32,000 nucleotides of DNA from Nostoc sp. PCC 7120 = FACHB-418 (GCF_000009705.1 NC_003272.1:1830001-1862000), one strand, 5' to 3'. Shown: positions 5,259 to 13,957, counted from the stretch's first letter. Made by a program: numbers and translations. Notes: generated by a model not told the origin, from the letters alone.

Positions 5259-6286
5259 ACGCGATGTGCGACTTATTGTTTCGTTACACAAGTTCGGTGT
5301 ATGAACGATTGAAAAGAAAATTCCCACAATCCGCACTGGAGCGAGAAAATCGTTACCAGTGAATGGAATGCGGGAAAAATGTTTTCTATTGAAGAGTTTA
5401 TCATTGCCGTATTTTGCTGTGTTGACGACGTGCTGATGGAAATCACCCAGATATACCCAATCAAGAGACGAGGTTTTGCTCCGAGTTTAAGGGAGAGTGA
5501 AGTTTTAACAATGGAAGTAGTGGCAGAGTTTTTGGGAATAGATGCTGACAAAGACATTTGGAAATACTTTCACCGTCACTGGTTAGGGCTATTTCCTCAG
5601 TTAAAGAGTCGCTATGCTTTTATTCGTCAAGCAGCTAATTGTTGGCAGTACAAGGAACTCATACAACAAAAATTAGCACAGTATTTAGGAGCATACTCTG
5701 ATCAACTTCATTTGATTGATGGATTACCAATACCTTTGTGTGGCTTGAGTCGCGCTCCCAACTGCCGAAGTTTTAAATCCCTTGCAGATTATGGTTTTTG
5801 TGCTGCTAAAAAACAGACGTACTATGGGTTTCATGGGCATTTAATCGTTAGTGGCACAGGAGTTATTAGTGGATTTACCCTGACTCCGGCAAATGGCAGT
5901 GAACGGGACGCACTTTGGGATTTAATCACGCGAATTAAAGGTTTATTAATCGGAGATAAGGGCTATTTAAGTCAGTTCTTGTCAGGAGAACTTAAAGAAG
6001 TGGGTATTACTTTACAAACCCCTTTGCGTTCTAATATGTCTGACTCTCGTAGCCGATCTTCAGTGCGATTAATGCAACGCTTTCGTCGCCTAATTGAAAC
6101 AGTAATTGGTCAATTAGTTGAGAGATTTCATATAGAGAAGATTCGAGCGAGAGATATGTGGCATCTTACCAGTCGTCTCAATCGCAAGATTTTAGCTCAT
6201 ACCGTCTGTTTCTGGCTTAATCGCCACAATTGTGACCCTCTTCAGTTCGACGATCTTGTTACAGAATATTAAGTCGCACATGGCGT
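5259..6286 (+). mobile_element. IS982-family-like insertion sequence (1028 bp)
   Basis: Terminal inverted repeats ACGCGATGTGCGACTTA (5259-5275) and the reverse complement of 6270-6286, ACGCCATGTGCGACTTA, match at 16 of 17 positions. Flanked by a 6-bp direct duplication TATTTA (5253-5258 and 6287-6292). Carries a single transposase ORF whose stop codon lies inside the right IR. Confidence 0.8.
5379..6272 (+). CDS. DDE transposase, IS982-family-like
   Basis: 297 aa. The pattern LIDGLPIPLC ... AAKKQTYYGFHGHLIV ... TLTPANGSERD ... LIGDKGY ... LQTPLRSNM ... RRLIETVIGQL matches my recollection of IS982 transposases. Element length and IR/DR sizes are consistent. Confidence 0.65.
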   Translation: MFSIEEFIIAVFCCVDDVLMEITQIYPIKRRGFAPSLRESEVLTMEVVAEFLGIDADKDIWKYFHRHWLGLFPQLKSRYAFIRQAANCWQYKELIQQKLAQYLGAYSDQLHLIDGLPIPLCGLSRAPNCRSFKSLADYGFCAAKKQTYYGFHGHLIVSGTGVISGFTLTPANGSERDALWDLITRIKGLLIGDKGYLSQFLSGELKEVGITLQTPLRSNMSDSRSRSSVRLMQRFRRLIETVIGQLVERFHIEKIRARDMWHLTSRLNRKILAHTVCFWLNRHNCDPLQFDDLVTEY

Positions 6287-6556
6287 TATTTAGTAATTTC
6301 CTACGATGTACCAGAAGATAAACGCCGTACTAAAATTCACAAAGTTCTCAAATCTTACGGACAGTGGATGCAGTATTCCGTTTTTGAATGTGACCTGACA
6401 CCTACTCAGTATGCTAAACTGCGATCGCGTCTAGCCAAACTCATCAAACCAGACCAAGACAGCATCCGTTTTTATCACCTCTGTGCTTGCTGTCAAGGAA
6501 AAGTTGAGCGCATTGGCGGCGAAATGCCAATAGACACCACCGTATTTTTTGCTTAA

Positions 6557-6812: not shown

Positions 6813-7723
6813 GTTTCTATTAACACAAATCCCTATCAGGGATTGAAACAATTTTCTCTGGTAAAACAAACTTTTCTTTGATGCGAGTTTCTATTAACAC
6901 AAATCCCTATCAGGGATTGAAACTTCGGCGGGCAATCTTAAAATACCCTGACCTGAAAGTTTCTATTAACACAAATCCCTATCAGGGATTGAAACGGCAG
7001 CACAATACTTATCACGGGCTAAATTCTGGTTTCTATTAACACAAATCCCTATCAGGGATTGAAACCTTTGGCTAATGCCTGCCAAGCTAATGGAAGTTAC
7101 GTTTCTATTAACACAAATCCCTATCAGGGATTGAAACCTATCTTCAGCGTATTGTAAAGCTTGCTTTAATTGGTTTCTATTAACACAAATCCCTATCAGG
7201 GATTGAAACTCTACACTGACCAATGTTGAAAGTATCAAGACAGGGTTTCTATTAACACAAATCCCTATCAGGGATTGAAACAAATGACAACTATTATTCA
7301 ATAACAACGATGCCAAAGTATGGTTTCTATTAACACAAATCCCTATCAGGGATTGAAACAGCTATTGCACATTTACAAAAGCTCGGATATCAAGTTTCTA
7401 TTAACACAAATCCCTATCAGGGATTGAAACTCGAAATCCGGTGAGGATACCTTACTTTTAGCCCGTAAAGTTTCTATTAACACAAATCCCTATCAGGGAT
7501 TGAAACCGGATAATCCCTTACGGATGGATTCACAGATTTGTTTCTATTAACACAAATCCCTATCAGGGATTGAAACTGAAACTCAGTTCGTGCCTCATCA
7601 AATTTAATCAAATGTTTCTATTAACACAAATCCCTATCAGGGATTGAAACTTGTGCTGTTCCTGCTGAGTAGCTGGAATAAGCAGCGTTTCTATTAACAC
7701 AAATCCCTATCAGGGATTGAAAC
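6813..7723 (+). CRISPR. CRISPR array, 13 repeats of 37 bp and 12 spacers
   Basis: Repeat GTTTCTATTAACACAAATCCCTATCAGGGATTGAAAC starts at 6813, 6887, 6959, 7029, 7101, 7173, 7245, 7323, 7394, 7470, 7540, 7614 and 7687. All copies are identical by eye. Spacer lengths are 37, 35, 33, 35, 35, 35, 41, 34, 39, 33, 37 and 36 nt. There is an internal 5-bp stem, TCCCT-atc-AGGGA. The ATTGAAAC 3' end (the usual 8-nt crRNA handle for Cas6 systems) and the cas-proximal leader support + orientation. Confidence 0.97.
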
Positions 7724-7760
7724 ATCAGATGCGGTAAACTTAATTGTCAGATTTTCAGCT

Positions 7761-8345
7761 TTATACCTTGCTCTCTTCGTTCTCTTTCACATTATCTTGT
7801 TTGTCATCATTACCATTGTCTTGCTGTTTCTTCTCTTGCACAACCTGAGTAGCATAAACTTCTACATCTCGCTGAATAATCTCTTCTACTTGATTGGCAA
7901 AGTTACTAAATGCTTTATCGTGGGTTTCATAATTCACATAAGGCCCAGTTAATTGAAAGAATTGCCAACCTTGTGTTTTCAAAGATTCGGCCGTGCGGCG
8001 ATAGTGTCGCCAGCGTTCTCCATAGTGGAAAAATTCTTCAACAGCTGCGCTAATTGCTACAACTTGGCTAAGGGAAAAAGTAGCCCAAACAAAAATTTCC
8101 CGCACCTGAGAACTGTTAATATTGAGACTTACCAAAGCGGGTAGAGCTACACCACCAATAATTGTGACCAATCGTAATCTGTAATATCTATTCCGTGATT
8201 TACCTGCTTGTCTTTCCATCCACAACATTTGGTCTAACCAACGCGAAAATAAGAATTGTGTTTGTAATTCTGAGAGATTCAACGAGTCAATTAAATTCGT
8301 AAATTTCCCCTTAAGAAATTCTTGATAATCATCTTTATTAGCCAT
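7761..8345 (-). CDS. SLATT / DUF4231-family two-transmembrane effector-like protein
   Basis: 194 aa. Two predicted TM helices (YYRLRLVTIIGGVALPALVSL and IFVWATFSLSQVVAISAAV) are followed by the DUF4231-like FFHYGERWRHYRRTAESLKTQGWQF motif and an acidic/Lys-rich tail. Starts 9 nt after the stop of the upstream SLOG gene. Confidence 0.7.
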   Translation of the reverse strand: MANKDDYQEFLKGKFTNLIDSLNLSELQTQFLFSRWLDQMLWMERQAGKSRNRYYRLRLVTIIGGVALPALVSLNINSSQVREIFVWATFSLSQVVAISAAVEEFFHYGERWRHYRRTAESLKTQGWQFFQLTGPYVNYETHDKAFSNFANQVEEIIQRDVEVYATQVVQEKKQQDNGNDDKQDNVKENEESKV

Positions 8346-8354
8346 AATTCAATC

Positions 8355-9092
8355 CTAATTTAAAAGTAAATTTGTCATCGTATCTATTAATTCTTCTGGT
8401 GCTGCTTCTAAGTCAATTGTTTGTATATGATCAGATGCGGCTAATTCTGTAGCTCGTTCATCAGTAGCATATCCACGCAAAGCAGAAGCAATTTTATCTG
8501 CTGTTCTCCCACTACCAGCAATCACTATCACCAACCGTCCAGCAATCACACTATTTAAGGCATCAATAAAGCTAATTTCACCACCATTAATTAGGACGGT
8601 AATCGAAGGTAAGCCGTTAGCTAAGAGAGTTGCTACCTTTACTATCCAGGGAGATTCATCACCCCATTTACTGCCAGGAATTAAGACAAAATGACTATGA
8701 TGCGGCTCCAGGGGTGTGGCATCGTCAGCTAGGATAGTAGTCTGATTGGGTAAAATTACCTTTGCTGTTGGCGCTACACCAATTAGCGGAAACTGCCCAT
8801 TGATTTGGCTACGGGCATCACCCATCAATCGCATCACTCCCGCATCCGTGCCACCATCTACTACATAAGCCCCCAAGCTTTGGGCAATTGGTGCTAGGAC
8901 TTCCACAAACAGGCTTTGGATACGCAAAAAGTCAGCTTCGCTAGTCTGACTAGCACCCCCAACAATGACTAAAACAGGACGGGAGTTACTTAGCCCTAAT
9001 TGCTCTAGCGCCTCCGGTAACTCTGCGGTTTCAGATACCGTAACTGCTGCTGCTTGGTTGGAGCTTAAATTTAGCCTGAAAAAATTTACCAT
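8355..9092 (-). CDS. SLOG-superfamily nucleotide-binding protein (prokaryotic TRPM/LSDAT-like)
   Basis: 245 aa with Rossmann-like glycine motifs in SLOG order: PVLVIVGGAS, VVDGGTDAGVMRLMG, PLIGVAP, HSHFVLIPGSKWGDES, TVLINGGEIS and VIAGSGRTADKIA. First gene of a 2-gene operon with the SLATT gene. Confidence 0.65.
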   Translation of the reverse strand: MVNFFRLNLSSNQAAAVTVSETAELPEALEQLGLSNSRPVLVIVGGASQTSEADFLRIQSLFVEVLAPIAQSLGAYVVDGGTDAGVMRLMGDARSQINGQFPLIGVAPTAKVILPNQTTILADDATPLEPHHSHFVLIPGSKWGDESPWIVKVATLLANGLPSITVLINGGEISFIDALNSVIAGRLVIVIAGSGRTADKIASALRGYATDERATELAASDHIQTIDLEAAPEELIDTMTNLLLN

Positions 9093-9676
9093 TTATTCGC
9101 AGTAGAAGTTGCAACAATTTAAGTATTTTACGTAGTAATTCTCGGTTTAATGTCTAATCTGCAATTCATAACCCTTATAACTTAATGTATTGAAATTGAC
9201 CTTAGATTCAGTTACATAGTAAAAATAACCAATTTTTTAGAGAATGAGTAGAGCCATAGCAAAAATTCTTGTAACTACTTCTGATAATAGGTTTATCTCT
9301 ATTGGCCAATGATTACATAGTGCTATTCCAGAAGCATATATAAAAAAATAAATTACAAAAAACTATGTTAAATTGCTAACCTGCTTTCTGATCGTTATGC
9401 TATTCACGCTCAAGTATAGCTGTCACCAGTAGGTTAGGAAATTAATAGATGATACAACCTAGATACAACAAGACTTTTTACCCAGTCCCCAGCTATAAAT
9501 TTGGCTCAAAGCCTTCTAGAACTAACAAAGAAGAGACGGGTTATTCCGAATTTATATTCTTGCTGTTTCACTTAAGTATGATTACCATAATTTAAGTATA
9601 CTTTATGCCTTCAATATATATCACTTGAGGATCTGTAACCCAGGCAATTTTCTCAAAATCAGCATTAATACGTAAT

Positions 9677-12600
9677 ATGAATAAATTTAAAAGTGCATTT
9701 ATTTCTTATGGAAGAGCAGATAGCAAAGCCTTCGCAACTAAGCTACATCAGCGATTTGTAGAAGCAGGGCTAGACATTTGGTTTGACCAAAATGATATTC
9801 CTTTAGGTGTTGACTTCCAAAATCAAATAGACGATGGAATTGAAAAATCAGACAATTTTCTCTTTATCATTGCGCCTCACTCAGTCAACTCTCCCTATTG
9901 TGGTAAAGAGATAGATTTAGCACTCCGCCGGAATAAACGCATTATTCCCTTGCTGCACGTAGAGCAAATTACTCAGGAAATTTGGCAGCAACGCAACCCT
10001 GGACGAGAAGCTAGTGAGTGGGAACAATATCAAGCCAAGGGGTTACATTCCAGTTTTCCTAATATGCACCCAGCTATTAGCAAGATTAACTGGGTATACT
10101 TCCGTGAGGGTATCGATGACTTTGAGAAATCATTGGCGGGACTACTAGAATTATTTCTCCGTCATCAGGACTATGTGCATCAACACACCTATTTTTTAGC
10201 CAAAGCCCTGGAATGGGAGCAAAAACAACAACAGTCACAATACCTGTTGATTGGTGAAGAACGGGAACAGGCTGAAAACTGGCTAAAACTTAGGTTTAGA
10301 GATGAACAACCGCCCTGCGAACCAACCGATTTACATTGTGCATTTATTTGTCAGAGTATCAAGAATGCTAACAACCTAATGACTCAGGTGTTTCTTTCCT
10401 ACTCAGAAAACGAGAGGCTGTTTATGGAGAAGATTGCCAAAATCTTGATGCGAGAAAGCTTCACAGTTTGGACAAACAAAACAGATATTCAATCTGGAGC
10501 AGATTTTACCGAGTCGATTAATCGAGGCATTGAGGAAGCAGATAATGTAGTTCTTCTCTTGTCGACGGCCTCTTTGCAATCAGAATACTGTCAAATGGAA
10601 CTATCTTATGCTTTTTCTCTGAAAAAGCGGATTATTCCCTTGTTGATTGAACCCGTAGATATAGAGCAGATTCCAGTGGAACTAAGTATCTTACAGTTCA
10701 TCGACTTTACAGATCAAGAAGAGCAGGGAAAAGAGTCTGCCGATACCGATAGGCTAATTAATGTGCTGCGTCGAGATGAAGCTTACTACGAACAGCATAA
10801 AATCCTACTGGCAAAAGCTCTCAAGTGGGAACGGCAAAAACGTAATCCTAGTATTTTGTTGCGTCATCACAATCTGCGTCATGCCGAGGACTGGTTAAAG
10901 ATAGCTCAACAAAACACACAACATCCACCCATACCTTTACAAGCAGAATTTATCGCTGAAAGCCTCAAGCAACCCCCACAAGCGGCGCTGGATGTATTTA
11001 TTTCTTACTCTCGTGCTGATTCTGACTTTGCGCGTAAGCTTAACGATACCCTGCAAATTCAAAACAAAACTACATGGTTTGATCAGGAAAGTATTGCCTC
11101 TGGTACTAACTTTGAGCAAGAGATTTACCGAGGAATAGAAAGCGCCAATAACTTCTTATTCATTATTTCGCCTAAATCTCTCAGTTCACCCTACTGCACG
11201 ACTGAGGTAGAGTATGCGATGAATTTAAATAAGCGAATCGTTACCGTTTTGTATCGGGAAATAAAGGGTGCAACTCTTCATCCTGGGTTAGCAAAAGTGC
11301 AGTGGATTGATTTTAGCCAACATAACACCGATTTTCTGACTAAATTCGGCGAACTAACGAGAACACTAGATTCAGATCCAGAATATGTGCGATCGCACAC
11401 TCGGATTTTTCTGAAGGCGAAGGACTGGGAGGAACACAACCGTGATGATAGCTTCTTACTCCGAGGCAAAGATTTGCTAGCCTCTGAGGAATGGCTAAAG
11501 CAATCTGATAATAAACAACCAGCCCCTACTACTTTACAATTAGATTATCTCGCTGCCAGTCATGCTTTCCCCTATCGCAAAATTAAGCTGCGTAGCGTCT
11601 TGCTGACTAGCTTGGTCGTGACAACAGTAATTTTCCTTGCTAGGTTACTCGGATTCACTCAGCCATTAGAACTAGCAGTTTATGACCGGATGATGTCGTT
11701 ACGTGGTGATGAACCACAAGATGAACGATTTTTAATGGTCGATGTTGATACGGAAAGTATTGAAAAGTTGAATGAAGACTATACAGGTGGCAGGGGTTCA
11801 ATTCCTGATCAGGCTTTAGACAAAGTACTCAAAATTCTTTCCCAGTACCAACCCAGTGTAATTGGGTTGGATTTTGTGCGTGATTTTCCCGCCGAAGGTA
11901 ACCTAAAAGAGCATTTGCAGCAAGCTGAAAACTTTATTGCAGTCTGTAAAAACAGTTATATAAGCGATCGCGGTGAAAAGATTCTTGGCCTTAAACATCC
12001 CCCAGAAGTGCCTTTAGCGCGAGTTGGGTTTAGTGACTTGGTTGATGATGATGCTAAAGGTGGTCGTTTTGTGCGCCGACAATACTTGATGCAAAACCCA
12101 GACCCTAAATATTGCAATACACGAGAAGCTTTTAGTTTAGTAATTGCTCGTCGCTATCTAGAAGCCCAAGGTCAAAAGTACATTTCTCCTCTAGATATCA
12201 AGAGCAAAGAATATGTGCAGGATATGCAATTTGGTAAAGCTCTCATTCCCCAACTTTTGGGAAAAGGTGGCGGCTATCAGGATATCAATAACCAGCTTGA
12301 AGGGTATCAAACGATGCTCAAATATCGTGTTTCTGGACGCGATCCCTATAATTTTGCCCCTAGAGTCAATATTTTACAAGTTTTGAACAATAAGGTTTCT
12401 GCTGAAAAAATTAGAAATCGGATTATACTGATTGGCTTTACTGATAGGCAAACTAGACAAGCTGATTACTGGAGTACAGTCTATGGTGATGTTCCAGGCG
12501 TGACATTGCATGGACAAATGATCAGTCAGATCCTCAGTGCTACTTTAGATAATCGCCAACTCATCTGGTGGTGGCCTCTTGGTTATGAAACACTCTGGAT

Positions 12601-12820
12601 GTTTGGCTGGGCTTTGGTAGGTGGTATTGTCTGTTGGCGATTGAACCGTACTCTCCATATAGGTATAGCGGTGGTTGGCTCTATCGCCTGTCTCTACATC
12701 ATCTGTTCAGTAATTTTAGTTTACCAGAGCGGTTGGATACCTTTTAAGCCACCGTTTCTAGCGTTACTGGGTACTGGGGCAGGTGTATTATATTTAACTA
12801 ATAATCTCCGTAGGAATTAA
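9677..12820 (+). CDS. Triple TIR-domain protein fused to a transmembrane CHASE2 sensor domain
   Basis: TIR1 starts about aa 6 (FISYGRADS ... SPYCGKEIDLA). TIR2 starts about aa 238 (FLSYSENE ... SEYCQMELSYA). TIR3 starts about aa 440 (FISYSRADS ... SPYCTTEVEYA). A TM helix lies at about aa 640-660 (VLLTSLVVTTVIFLARLLGF). The CHASE2-like region begins LELAVYDRMMSLRGDEPQDERFLMVDVDTESIEKL ... VIGLDFVRDFP. Three C-terminal TM helices follow (LIWWWPLGYETLWMFGWALVGGIV... to GTGAGVLYL). Confidence 0.8.
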   Translation: MNKFKSAFISYGRADSKAFATKLHQRFVEAGLDIWFDQNDIPLGVDFQNQIDDGIEKSDNFLFIIAPHSVNSPYCGKEIDLALRRNKRIIPLLHVEQITQEIWQQRNPGREASEWEQYQAKGLHSSFPNMHPAISKINWVYFREGIDDFEKSLAGLLELFLRHQDYVHQHTYFLAKALEWEQKQQQSQYLLIGEEREQAENWLKLRFRDEQPPCEPTDLHCAFICQSIKNANNLMTQVFLSYSENERLFMEKIAKILMRESFTVWTNKTDIQSGADFTESINRGIEEADNVVLLLSTASLQSEYCQMELSYAFSLKKRIIPLLIEPVDIEQIPVELSILQFIDFTDQEEQGKESADTDRLINVLRRDEAYYEQHKILLAKALKWERQKRNPSILLRHHNLRHAEDWLKIAQQNTQHPPIPLQAEFIAESLKQPPQAALDVFISYSRADSDFARKLNDTLQIQNKTTWFDQESIASGTNFEQEIYRGIESANNFLFIISPKSLSSPYCTTEVEYAMNLNKRIVTVLYREIKGATLHPGLAKVQWIDFSQHNTDFLTKFGELTRTLDSDPEYVRSHTRIFLKAKDWEEHNRDDSFLLRGKDLLASEEWLKQSDNKQPAPTTLQLDYLAASHAFPYRKIKLRSVLLTSLVVTTVIFLARLLGFTQPLELAVYDRMMSLRGDEPQDERFLMVDVDTESIEKLNEDYTGGRGSIPDQALDKVLKILSQYQPSVIGLDFVRDFPAEGNLKEHLQQAENFIAVCKNSYISDRGEKILGLKHPPEVPLARVGFSDLVDDDAKGGRFVRRQYLMQNPDPKYCNTREAFSLVIARRYLEAQGQKYISPLDIKSKEYVQDMQFGKALIPQLLGKGGGYQDINNQLEGYQTMLKYRVSGRDPYNFAPRVNILQVLNNKVSAEKIRNRIILIGFTDRQTRQADYWSTVYGDVPGVTLHGQMISQILSATLDNRQLIWWWPLGYETLWMFGWALVGGIVCWRLNRTLHIGIAVVGSIACLYIICSVILVYQSGWIPFKPPFLALLGTGAGVLYLTNNLRRN

Positions 12821-13957
12821 GCTAACAAGCCAGCAAACAAACAGGAGAGTGAAAAAAGCACAGAATTTGTTTGACTGTATTAGTCGGCTGTTTAGCAATT
12901 CCAGACCAGAGGGGAATGCGTCTGGACGTTCACGAGGAGGGGCGACGCGCATCTCAAACAGATAAAAATACACTGATTGTATTAGTTCCTCAGAGCAATT
13001 AAGGCTTGATTACTCAGGATCATCTTCAGTTCTTATTCTATATTACCTTTTGGTGGATTATCCCAGTCACCTCCAGCCAAATTTAGGTTATTAAATGAAC
13101 AGAAAAAGTCTGTTTTGACGAAGCCTCTACCATTATCTTTACCAGAAAAACAAGGTATCGTCAGTATCACCCTTCCTTCTACCGAAAAACCCCTATTTAT
13201 AAACTCAAACTCCAAAAGTAATAAGTAGCAGTTATTACTCCTATATTGGACATATATAATTAAATAATTATGAAATTTATAAACTTTTCAGTATTAACTT
13301 TTATTTAATTTTTTAAATCAAATTCATGCAATATTAATTTGCCAAATAAGTTAGGAAAACTGTGAAGAAATATTTCGCTAACAGCGAATCACTTTTACGG
13401 CGTATGGCAGCAATTTATCAAGCTGTCTAGCCCCAACCAAACCTAGAAACATAAGAACAGGATGTATTGCCTGCGGGTTATGGGCTACGTCACACTATAG
13501 GTGAAGCAGTCAAAAAAAACCTTAGTAATGCGTGTATTCCACATAGTTTACGTAATCTTACTGATTGACAGCTACGTTTTTATGGTGATGATAATATGAT
13601 GTTGTTTGCCAACGACATAACTTAAAAATTATGTAAATCAGAGGCAATATTCATCTATAAACTCAGAAATCGATTACTCAAAAGGTCTTCATTCTGACGA
13701 AAGGGGTTTGTATCCTAATTTACTGCAATCGGAATTAGCTCATTAGTGTGTTACTAGACTTGATAACAGGTAAACATTACGGACTTTTCTGGAAGAATTT
13801 ACTGGCACATTATTAAAAAGCCCGTTAGTGTTGACTCCCTTAAATCAGTAATGGAGCTTTCAATAAAGACATTGCTGAAGCAAAACTCCTCTCATTTCAT
13901 ATCTGGAGATATTGCCAAAGAGATTCGCGTCAAAGACCAACTTTTAAGGAATAATCT

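Follow-up and report, generated by a model that had tools for sequence, protein, structure and literature searches.

A SLATT, SLOG and TIR-CHASE2 gene trio in Nostoc sp. PCC 7120, the probable remnant of a larger cell-suicide circuit of cyanobacteria

Do three neighbouring genes of Nostoc sp. PCC 7120 form a single signalling circuit, and what would such a circuit do to the cell? The genes lie beside a CRISPR array in a 32,000-nucleotide stretch of the chromosome (NC_003272.1:1830001-1862000; hereafter the window) and encode a SLATT membrane protein, a SLOG protein and, on the opposite strand, a membrane protein in which three TIR domains are fused to a CHASE2 domain (3xTIR-CHASE2). An earlier note on this DNA, drawn from the sequence alone, had read them as one Thoeris-like defence circuit. 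We compared the trio with about 160 related loci, seeded on SLOG or on TIR, and with known systems, and conclude that it is probably what is left, as an intact signalling core, of a larger, modular gene cluster of filamentous cyanobacteria that would act as a cell-suicide circuit. The domains, the linkage of the genes and the ADP-ribose-family look of the receptor support the claim of one circuit in part; it falls short in that the trio is not the whole unit and its linkage is not obligatory.

The chain of events towards which we lean, if only a little, runs from an envelope cue through NAD+ cleavage by the TIR domains, ligand binding by SLOG and activation of SLATT to membrane failure, with lysis in the full versions. 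The periplasm-facing CHASE2 domain would receive the envelope signal, which in the full versions is probably tied to a TPS-domain exoprotein, a ShlB transporter, a TPR-CHAT protease and a periplasmic DUF928 protein. The three cytoplasmic TIR domains would assemble and cleave NAD+ to a nucleotide of the ADP-ribose (ADPR) family, be it ADPR, cyclic ADPR (cADPR) or an isomer. The soluble, TRPM2-type SLOG would bind this nucleotide through a pocket that is the homologue of the ADPR site in TRPM2, and ligand-bound SLOG would activate the co-translated SLATT protein with its two transmembrane (TM) helices, so that the inner membrane is permeabilised. In the full versions a fusion of SLATT to lysozyme or GH19, together with an endolysin-like protein, would then lyse the cell in the style of abortive infection or programmed cell death. 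The PCC 7120 copy, its accessory genes on the CHASE2 side gone, would run on TIR-CHASE2, SLOG and a short SLATT. For this chain we infer the enzyme activity, the ligand, the trigger, the coupling of SLOG to SLATT and the role, whether in defence or in developmental cell death.

Partners of the triple TIR and of SLOG in related loci

An alignment of the SLOG protein found 545 species-level genomic matches, of which the best 80, all cyanobacterial, were taken with 10-kb flanks; their open reading frames (ORFs) were clustered and a hidden Markov model (HMM) was built for each conserved component. An alignment of 3xTIR-CHASE2 gave 79 metagenome loci, and the comparison of fusion forms below counts those in which each flank is 2 kb or longer. 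Many of the 79 carry a 3xTIR region fused to WD40 propellers in place of CHASE2, 56-67% identical over residues 1-630, and the two fusion forms keep different company. CHAT, TPS or ShlB genes stood beside 6/9 of the CHASE2 forms and 0/17 of the WD40 forms, and DUF928 beside 4/9 and 0/17, respectively. SLOG or SLATT was found beside both, in 5/9 and 5/17 loci. CHAT, TPS, ShlB and DUF928 therefore track CHASE2, the input, and SLOG, SLATT and two further families (c9 and c10) track the TIR, or output, module. This fits a circuit that runs from input to output.

A compact example is a metagenome operon (L146) in the order SLOG > 3xTIR-WD40 > SLATT-lysozyme > c10 > c9, in which 9 nt separate SLOG from TIR. 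Together with the partition of partners between input and output, this operon is the best comparative support for the circuit logic of the earlier note. SLOG and SLATT accompany 3xTIR without CHASE2 or envelope genes in L146 and in four other loci (L026, L137, L121 and L143), and SLATT follows TIR directly in L146, L137, L144, L149 and L157. Among the TIR-seeded loci whose downstream flank was long enough, 9/18 had DUF928 directly after TIR-CHASE2, as did 11 of the SLOG-seeded loci. In three loci (L108, L110 and L111) TPS and CHAT domains occur in one protein, in ORFs of ~1260-1300 aa downstream of TIR-CHASE2, and these fusions suggest that a CHAT protease can be cargo of two-partner secretion.

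In the SLOG-seeded survey the window's clade comprises 34 loci with SLOG at least ~67% identical, among which SLATT occurs in 29, 3xTIR in 21, the TPS-domain exoprotein (family c2) in 21, the ShlB/FhaC POTRA transporter (c4) in 21, the TPR-CHAT protease (c6) in 19 and DUF928 (c24) in 11. A long SLATT form, DUF4231 plus Phage_lysozyme, is present in 15 of these loci, c9 in 16 and c10 in 15. Five loci (L022, L023, L025, L027 and L038) have on one strand the exact nine-gene order TPS > ShlB > CHAT > TIR-CHASE2 > DUF928 > SLOG > SLATT-lysozyme > c10 > c9, and a sixth (L031) has this order plus an extra 120-aa ORF between SLOG and SLATT. In other loci TIR-CHASE2 < CHAT < ShlB < TPS is divergent from SLOG > SLATT. 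The nine-gene block escaped the earlier note, which took the trio as the unit.

The positions of TIR and SLOG relative to one another fall into at least five arrangements: divergent and adjacent; TIR upstream on the same strand; TIR downstream; TIR ~8-9 kb off, with TPS-ShlB-CHAT between; and SLOG divergent from an operon of TIR and SLATT (L064 and L066). A 3xTIR gene lay within 10 kb of SLOG in 21/34 loci of the window's clade and in 1/45 of the other clade (Fisher p = 2e-9). Since the loci share kinship, the variety of arrangements outweighs this count as an argument. The SLOG-SLATT pair itself is kept in 71/81 loci, with a gap of about 4-17 nt. An effector gene conserved beside TIR, the Thoeris pattern, is thus seen both in the 21/34 and 29/34 loci with 3xTIR and SLATT and in their several orders, including the L146 operon. 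In a tree of SLOG proteins, whose metagenome members came via TIR, linkage to TIR is basal and paraphyletic, and the stand-alone loci make up one derived clade.

Predicted signal generator, receptor and effector

The three ORFs were intact at the exact coordinates given by the earlier note (Table 1; protein accessions BAB77939, BAB77940 and BAB77941), and its measurements also proved accurate: 9 nt between the SLOG stop and SLATT, a 584-bp divergent spacer (31% GC) and 37 bp between the last CRISPR repeat and the SLATT gene. Profile searches in Pfam recovered all four domains that had been read from the sequence, namely SLOG, SLATT/DUF4231, TIR and CHASE2.

The 1047-aa protein was matched by TIR_2 in three stretches (6e-86) and by CHASE2 (2.7e-54). 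Hydropathy agreed with the proposed topology, in which one TM segment (residues 641-659) precedes CHASE2 and three hydrophobic segments (968-986, 997-1015 and 1020-1038) follow. CHASE2 is thus bracketed by TM segments, as in CHASE2 sensor proteins, and the output is the N-terminal 3xTIR. Alignment to AbTIR and Cat1 identified E78 with the catalytic Glu of TIR NADases, as had been proposed, and all three Glu codons were found in place. Among 87 homologues the Glu at the catalytic position is kept at E78 (86/86), at E308 (86/86) and at E510 (80/87, with Gln in 5 homologues); the 3xTIR part, the N-terminal ~640 aa, is 47-84% identical to these homologues (86-87 sequences). The locus therefore has the TIR protein with a catalytic Glu that is expected of a Thoeris system. 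A helical module of ~70-90 aa recurs behind each TIR (aa ~140-230, 365-435 and 565-630; window 9677-11500), for example ...FLAKALEWEQ...LLIGEEREQAENWLK..., and PADLOC models of the TIR-PNTD type cover this module as well.

The 245-aa SLOG protein contains all of the glycine motifs listed in the earlier note (VIVGGAS, DGGTDAGVM, NGGEIS and GSGRTAD). Its family is that of the TRPM channels: it matched LSDAT_prok, 'SLOG in TRPM, prokaryote', at 3.8e-72 and LSDAT_euk at 1.4e-13 in Pfam, and the first match of its sequence profile was TRPM2 (1e-13). An AlphaFold2 (AF2) model (pLDDT 80.9, pTM 0.84) was compared by Foldseek, and the top matches were MHR1/2 domains of TRPM2, with ADPR-bound TRPM2 first (E 5e-14); TMq was 0.73-0.76 for TRPM2 and up to 0.78 for TRPM4. 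The search for a ThsA-like ligand pocket, which the earlier note had suggested, thus did return a likeness to a ligand pocket, of the TRPM2 type and not the ThsA type. The idea that ThsA has here been split into SLOG and SLATT is an analogy and not homology, as the SLOG is of the TRPM (LSDAT) type and no ThsA model matches it.

In human TRPM2 (hTRPM2), ADPR is contacted by Y295, which clamps the adenine, by R358 at the phosphates, by R302 and by the beta5-alpha3 loop (PMC6759353). W143 of the SLOG protein, in an invariant WGDESPW, aligns with Y295 (native hTRPM2 numbering), the invariant R196 in GSGR aligns with R358, and the invariant loop DGGTDAGVM aligns with TGGSHTGVM of the beta5-alpha3 loop. 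With three of the four contact elements retained in sequence and model, the SLOG protein looks like a receptor for the ADPR family. The TRPM2 pocket also takes 8-Br-cADPR (PMC6759353), and by analogy ADPR or a cyclic isomer is a plausible ligand of SLOG.

The SLOG superfamily includes enzymes as well, the LOG phosphoribohydrolases. The SLOG protein might then degrade or process the nucleotide, tuning or ending the TIR signal, and SLATT would sense the TIR product directly, as is predicted for ThsH, the SLATT of type VII Thoeris, which would bind cADPR without any SLOG. We regard this as improbable. Sequence and fold both place the protein closest to the MHR1/2 domains of TRPM channels, which bind ligands and are not catalytic, the conserved residues map to ligand contacts, and SLOG and SLATT are kept as a closely spaced unit.

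The 194-aa SLATT protein matched DUF4231 (8.4e-37), SLATT_3 (4.4e-12) and SLATT_1 in Pfam and SLATT_1 in NCBIfam (1.9e-34), and hydropathy confirmed two TM helices (aa 59-77 and 84-102). The two proteins form a SLOG-SLATT pair, with both domains above their Pfam gathering thresholds (LSDAT_prok 242 bits against 25.4, DUF4231/SLATT 126 against 24.7) and the two genes adjacent on one strand. In relatives the SLATT protein carries a C-terminal Phage_lysozyme, GH19, or C39-like Peptidase_C39_2 plus GH19 domain; the window's SLATT is short and has no hydrolase domain. Given the two TM helices, a fused hydrolase would stay in the cytoplasm until the membrane is breached.

SLATT-lysozyme is always accompanied by c9 and c10. 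The C-terminal half of c9 matched the phage endolysin family phrog_33083 (1.8e-26; PHROGs), of which the N-terminal part matches the lysozyme that is fused to SLATT. Neither c9 nor c10 had a sequence match in Pfam or the PDB; PHROGs alone placed c9 as endolysin-like, and c10 matched nothing in these databases. The hydrolase fusions and the endolysin-like c9 indicate that the full system ends in a lysis cassette resembling those of holin and endolysin. Lysis is probably the output of the full versions, and SLATT looks like a membrane or lysis effector.

Table 1. Features of the module in the window, with conserved output-side genes of relatives (locus:coordinates)
Feature	Position	Strand	Basis or remark
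SLATT/DUF4231 protein, 194 aa, two TM	7761..8345	-	Pfam, NCBIfam, hydropathy; predicted membrane effector
Stand-alone SLOG, TRPM/LSDAT_prok type, 245 aa	8355..9092	-	Pfam, AF2/Foldseek; predicted ADP-ribose-family ligand receptor
Divergent intergenic deletion scar	9093..9676	.	blastn against L007, CHAT tblastn
3xTIR-CHASE2 membrane protein, 1047 aa	9677..12820	+	Pfam; predicted sensor fused to NAD-cleaving signal generator
TIR domain 1, ~aa 6-140, E78 (GAG) at 9908-9910	9692..10096	+	AbTIR/Cat1 alignment
TIR domain 2, ~aa 237-352, E308 (GAA) at 10598-10600	10385..10732	+	TIR_2 and ThsB-model stretches
TIR domain 3, aa 440-559, E510 (GAG) at 11204-11206	10994..11353	+	Best TIR_2 stretch
TM1 aa 641-659, periplasm-facing CHASE2 aa 649-984, three C-terminal hydrophobic segments aa 968-1038	11597..12790	+	Pfam CHASE2, hydropathy
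DUF928 pseudogene, three reading frames, one internal stop	12855..13216	+	hmmsearch, tblastn
SLATT-hydrolase fusions of relatives	L023:10852-12270, L146:13732-15129, L121:3745-6165, L118:1723-4005, L107:6649-8169		
c9, 448 aa	L146:15542-16885		Conserved companion of SLATT-lysozyme
c10, ~110 aa	L146:15167-15478		Conserved companion of SLATT-lysozyme

The reduced copy in PCC 7120 and the case against one circuit

The PCC 7120 locus has lost part of the block, and the traces of this loss, a pseudogene and a scar, had been overlooked. The closest relative, a locus of Nostoc parmelioides (L007), is 92% identical in nucleotide sequence and likewise lies beside type I-D cas genes. In a blastn comparison both flanks aligned, and L007 2330-9727, which holds CHAT, ShlB and TPS, was missing from the window. 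The spacer between SLOG and TIR-CHASE2 consists of a SLOG-proximal flank to ~9366, CHAT relics at ~9327-9551 and a TIR-proximal flank at 9549-9676. Two traces make up the relics: a stretch of 37 bp (9496-9532) whose nucleotides match part of the inside of the L007 CHAT gene, and a weak similarity to the CHAT protein (~9327-9551, tblastn E 6e-4). The 584-bp AT-rich spacer is therefore a deletion scar, and a 7.4-kb deletion took CHAT, ShlB and TPS from the PCC 7120 copy. Anabaena variabilis ATCC 29413 probably keeps the three lost genes, judged by the spacing of its accessions (SLOG ABA23779, TIR-CHASE2 ABA23783), which fits three genes between.

Downstream of TIR-CHASE2 the DUF928 model matched twice in the window (hmmsearch, 1.3e-26 and 1.8e-11). 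Six DUF928 orthologues, aligned by tblastn, trace this unannotated remnant through frame 3 (12855-12950), frame 1 with the stop (12946-13050) and frame 2 (13034-13216). It covers residues ~36-155 of ~254, and about 100 C-terminal residues are absent. A search for promoters and terminators in 7600-9800 gave nothing above chance, with promoter-like matches no commoner than in shuffled sequence. No relatives of SLOG or TIR-CHASE2, the two proteins that were scanned, were found on IMG/VR viral contigs within the sensitivity of a pattern search, and on this result phage origin or carriage was rejected.

This history raises the prospect that the PCC 7120 locus is a decaying relic, its trio no longer working whatever the full block does in relatives. 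The 7.4-kb deletion with its CHAT relics and the frameshifts and stop in the DUF928 pseudogene are consistent with decay, as are the flux of the region, where an IS982 element has destroyed the start codon of the nearby cas2, and the similarly degraded state of another locus (L036). We nonetheless think it distinctly unlikely. All three ORFs are full length, with all catalytic and ligand-contact residues intact. They are under purifying selection, with dN/dS against L007 of 0.10 for SLATT, 0.16 for SLOG and 0.10 for TIR-CHASE2 (over the N-terminal 683 codons), though a pairwise value of this kind is blind to selection after the deletion. The same three-gene layout, without relics, is found in two distant lineages (L020 and L037), with TIR-CHASE2 58-60% identical to that of the window, and the identical protein occurs on >100 contigs of the PCC 7120 strain group.

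Besides this limit of the dN/dS comparison, several observations weigh against a single working circuit. With the input-side partners deleted or decayed, the window copy may be impaired. The hTRPM2 contact R302 aligns with I150 of SLOG, a position that is not conserved, and no PADLOC model (2023 version) matches SLOG or SLATT; NCBIfam defence models do not match these two proteins either. The steadiest neighbour of TIR-CHASE2 in the TIR-seeded survey is DUF928, not SLOG or SLATT, and the metagenome loci, being seeded on TIR, contain TIR by construction, with small counts of well-flanked loci. No defence phenotype is known, and we found no literature on the neighbouring locus tags, guessed as all1571-alr1574. 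Two Calothrix loci (L029 and L032) have TPS-ShlB-CHAT divergent from SLOG > SLATT-lysozyme > c10 > c9, and neither TIR-CHASE2 nor DUF928 lies within 10 kb, intact or as a relic. The other 47 SLOG loci, mostly one monophyletic Nostoc clade, keep the SLOG-SLATT pair in 42/47 cases in a housekeeping context, and essentially no TIR was detected within 10 kb in this stand-alone clade, with HMMs from the 3xTIR family only and flanks that end at 10 kb. TIR linkage is therefore not obligatory. The neighbourhood survey called for by the earlier note is accordingly split, between linkage of TIR, SLOG and SLATT in many genomes and several gene orders and a large Nostoc clade that lacks a nearby TIR.

Much of this could be accommodated by two independent modules that share a variable locus. 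One would be an envelope or secretion-linked system of TIR-CHASE2 with DUF928, CHAT, TPS and ShlB, whose last step is the depletion of NAD+ by the TIRs themselves; the other would be an autonomous SLOG-SLATT pair that answers a different nucleotide, whether ADPR or NAD metabolites of the cell itself or a signal from elsewhere in the genome. The stand-alone clade, which is found in three housekeeping contexts, the steadiness of DUF928, the many TIR-CHASE2 loci without SLOG and SLATT and the two Calothrix loci are all consistent with independence. So are two genomes that hold a block-linked and a stand-alone SLOG(-SLATT), Nostoc sp. UHCC 0251 (L009 and L051) and Nostoc sp. P9820 bin 6 (L027 and L053); such paralogues also make cross-talk in trans possible. 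Set against independence is the presence of SLOG and SLATT beside 3xTIR even where CHASE2 and the envelope genes are absent, as in L146. The clean trio-only loci L020 and L037, and a linkage that survives at least five rearrangements, point the same way, and it is an unlikely coincidence that a receptor of the type found in ADPR-gated channels lies beside an enzyme family that produces ADPR. Independence of the two modules appears rather unlikely to us on this evidence, and we still lean towards the single circuit.

Known systems and the CRISPR neighbour

The closest known system is type VII Thoeris, an experimentally validated pair of a TIR protein, ThsB, and a SLATT effector, ThsH, that uses canonical cADPR (bioRxiv 10.64898/2025.12.03.692087). 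Both have a TIR signal generator and a SLATT effector, compared with ThsH by description only, both occur in cyanobacteria, and abortive infection is predicted for both; in the window the TIR gene lies within 1.4 kb of SLATT, the adjacency by which type VII is recognised. However, the described layout of type VII has no SLOG, whereas here a separate TRPM2-type SLOG protein is present. Its ThsB is small and soluble, in contrast to a triple TIR fused to a TM-anchored CHASE2 (WD40 in relatives), and here most relatives embed the system in the TPS/ShlB/CHAT/DUF928 block. In type I Thoeris, which pairs ThsB with ThsA (SIR2-SLOG), a SLOG reads the TIR product and switches on a cell-killing effector, as we propose here. 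The present SLOG differs in that it is a stand-alone member of the LSDAT/TRPM family with no SIR2. The locus does not belong to type I, as it has no ThsA-type SIR2/TM-SLOG protein and the PADLOC ThsA models were silent, nor to type III, as NF058526 (ThcB4) reached 106 bits against an NCBIfam equivalog cut-off of 220.

Like TRPM2, the locus couples a SLOG that has the aromatic clamp (Y295/W143), the phosphate Arg (R358/R196) and the glycine-rich loop to a device for membrane permeability. The SLOG of TRPM2 forms one protein with a tetrameric channel of six TM helices, whereas the SLOG here is a separate protein beside an unrelated two-TM SLATT. The full versions resemble the cassettes of phage holin and endolysin in linking a small membrane protein both to a lysozyme or GH19 domain and to another endolysin-like protein, with phrog_33083 matching both parts. 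They differ in that SLATT belongs to no holin family and carries its hydrolase as a fused domain, which the SLATT of the window lacks. As the Pfam names suggest, two-gene SLOG-SLATT conflict systems of sensor and pore-forming effector were reportedly predicted by Burroughs, Aravind and co-workers (2015), and the order found here, an LSDAT_prok SLOG directly followed by a two-TM DUF4231/SLATT protein, agrees with that prediction. The linkage to a sensor-fused triple TIR, the fusions to peptidoglycan hydrolases and the envelope module are added here.

Shaseng, also validated by experiment, combines SLATT with two TIR proteins under CRISPR supervision, termed 'CRISIS' (bioRxiv 10.1101/2024.12.27.630466). 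It shares with our locus the presence of several TIR domains and SLATT beside CRISPR-Cas, but it forms part of a type I-C cas operon, and a CRISPR RNA (crRNA)-like RNA represses it, whereas here the neighbour is type I-D and the genes are outside the cas operon. Because TIR and SLATT have been characterised together in type VII Thoeris and in Shaseng, the novelty is smaller than was assumed by the earlier note, which knew of no characterised example of the three-part combination. We found no account in the literature in which a CHASE2- or WD40-fused triple TIR is joined by SLATT or SLATT-lysin and a stand-alone SLOG of the TRPM type, and none of the TPS/ShlB/CHAT/DUF928 embedding; DUF928 turned up in one passing mention only. 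The logic of the locus is Thoeris-like, and the variant is undescribed.

The array 37 bp away, and the precedent of Shaseng, could suggest that SLOG-SLATT is an accessory of CRISPR-Cas, either as an effector of cyclic oligoadenylates (cOA) made by Cas10, the alternative that the earlier note had offered, or as a CRISIS-type unit repressed by a crRNA-like RNA. The neighbouring system is of type I-D, with matches to the cas3' and cas1d models and with Csc1 and Csc2 further upstream; type I-D is not known as a maker of cOA. The sensor is a SLOG and not CARF or SAVED, and among the ~160 loci cas genes adjoin the module in L001 and L007 only. Published experiments place the 290-aa Cas6 (Alr1566) and the array, CR_4 (13 repeats, 6813-7723), in type I-D. 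CRISIS systems sit inside type I-C cas operons and have a solitary repeat whose spacer-like part complements their own promoter. Beyond the array, the window contains neither a solitary nor a degenerate repeat, and no 14-mer of a spacer recurs elsewhere in it; complementarity of spacer seeds to the promoter region equalled that of shuffles (4 mismatches in 16); no crlRNA-like element was found. We rejected a CRISPR-ancillary or CRISPR-supervised role on these grounds, as a reading that has become hard to credit.

The CRISPR-Cas neighbourhood showed some further features. CR_4 (6813-7761 region) is transcribed from the + strand towards the 3' end of SLATT on the - strand, and with 37 bp between them and no terminator-like site found, read-through from the array would be antisense to SLATT-SLOG. 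An IS982-family element (5259-6286; transposase 5379-6272) that is absent in L007 has inserted between cas1 and cas2. At cas2 (6284-6556) the native ATG has given way to the right end of the element, so that the gene reads CGT-TAT-TTA-GTA in the window and ATG-TAT-TTA-GTA in L007, and the first in-frame ATG leaves a Cas2 of 62 aa. Between cas3' and cas6, the type I-D operon includes a 2OG-Fe(II) oxygenase gene (1760-2377, +), which L007 has too (203 aa). The downstream genes are metabolic or housekeeping, with a GMC oxidoreductase, a ferritin-like protein, sugar-phosphate TIM barrels, a galactose-oxidase-like protein, a DyP peroxidase, GH15 and Hsp33. The argument from a defence island is thus weak: cas adjacency is confined to PCC 7120 and its closest relative, and the other 18 kb of the window do not support an island beyond CRISPR-Cas itself.

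A bolder version of the circuit, possible in our estimate but tentative, makes the locus a split-gene prokaryotic counterpart of ADPR-gated TRPM2. ADPR or cADPR made by the TIRs would bind the TRPM2-type SLOG, which would open a SLATT pore, fused to endolysin domains in the full versions, and CHASE2 would wire the circuit to an envelope module of secreted protein, protease and DUF928. Individual cells of a multicellular filament would thereby undergo programmed lysis, be it for anti-phage altruism or for developmental cell death, of which the formation of necridia is an example. If true, it would be a new Thoeris type with a three-tier relay of sensor-TIR, soluble receptor and effector, and a living model for the origin of ligand gating in TRPM channels that links bacterial TIR signalling to the ADPR-binding domain of animal TRPM2. 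If the relay works, its triple TIR, fused to a sensor, would read the envelope rather than the cytoplasm, a free-standing receptor would stand between signal and effector, and the output would join a SLATT pore to cell-wall hydrolases. PCC 7120 is genetically tractable, and together with A. variabilis ATCC 29413 it would offer a natural comparison of a minimal and a full version.

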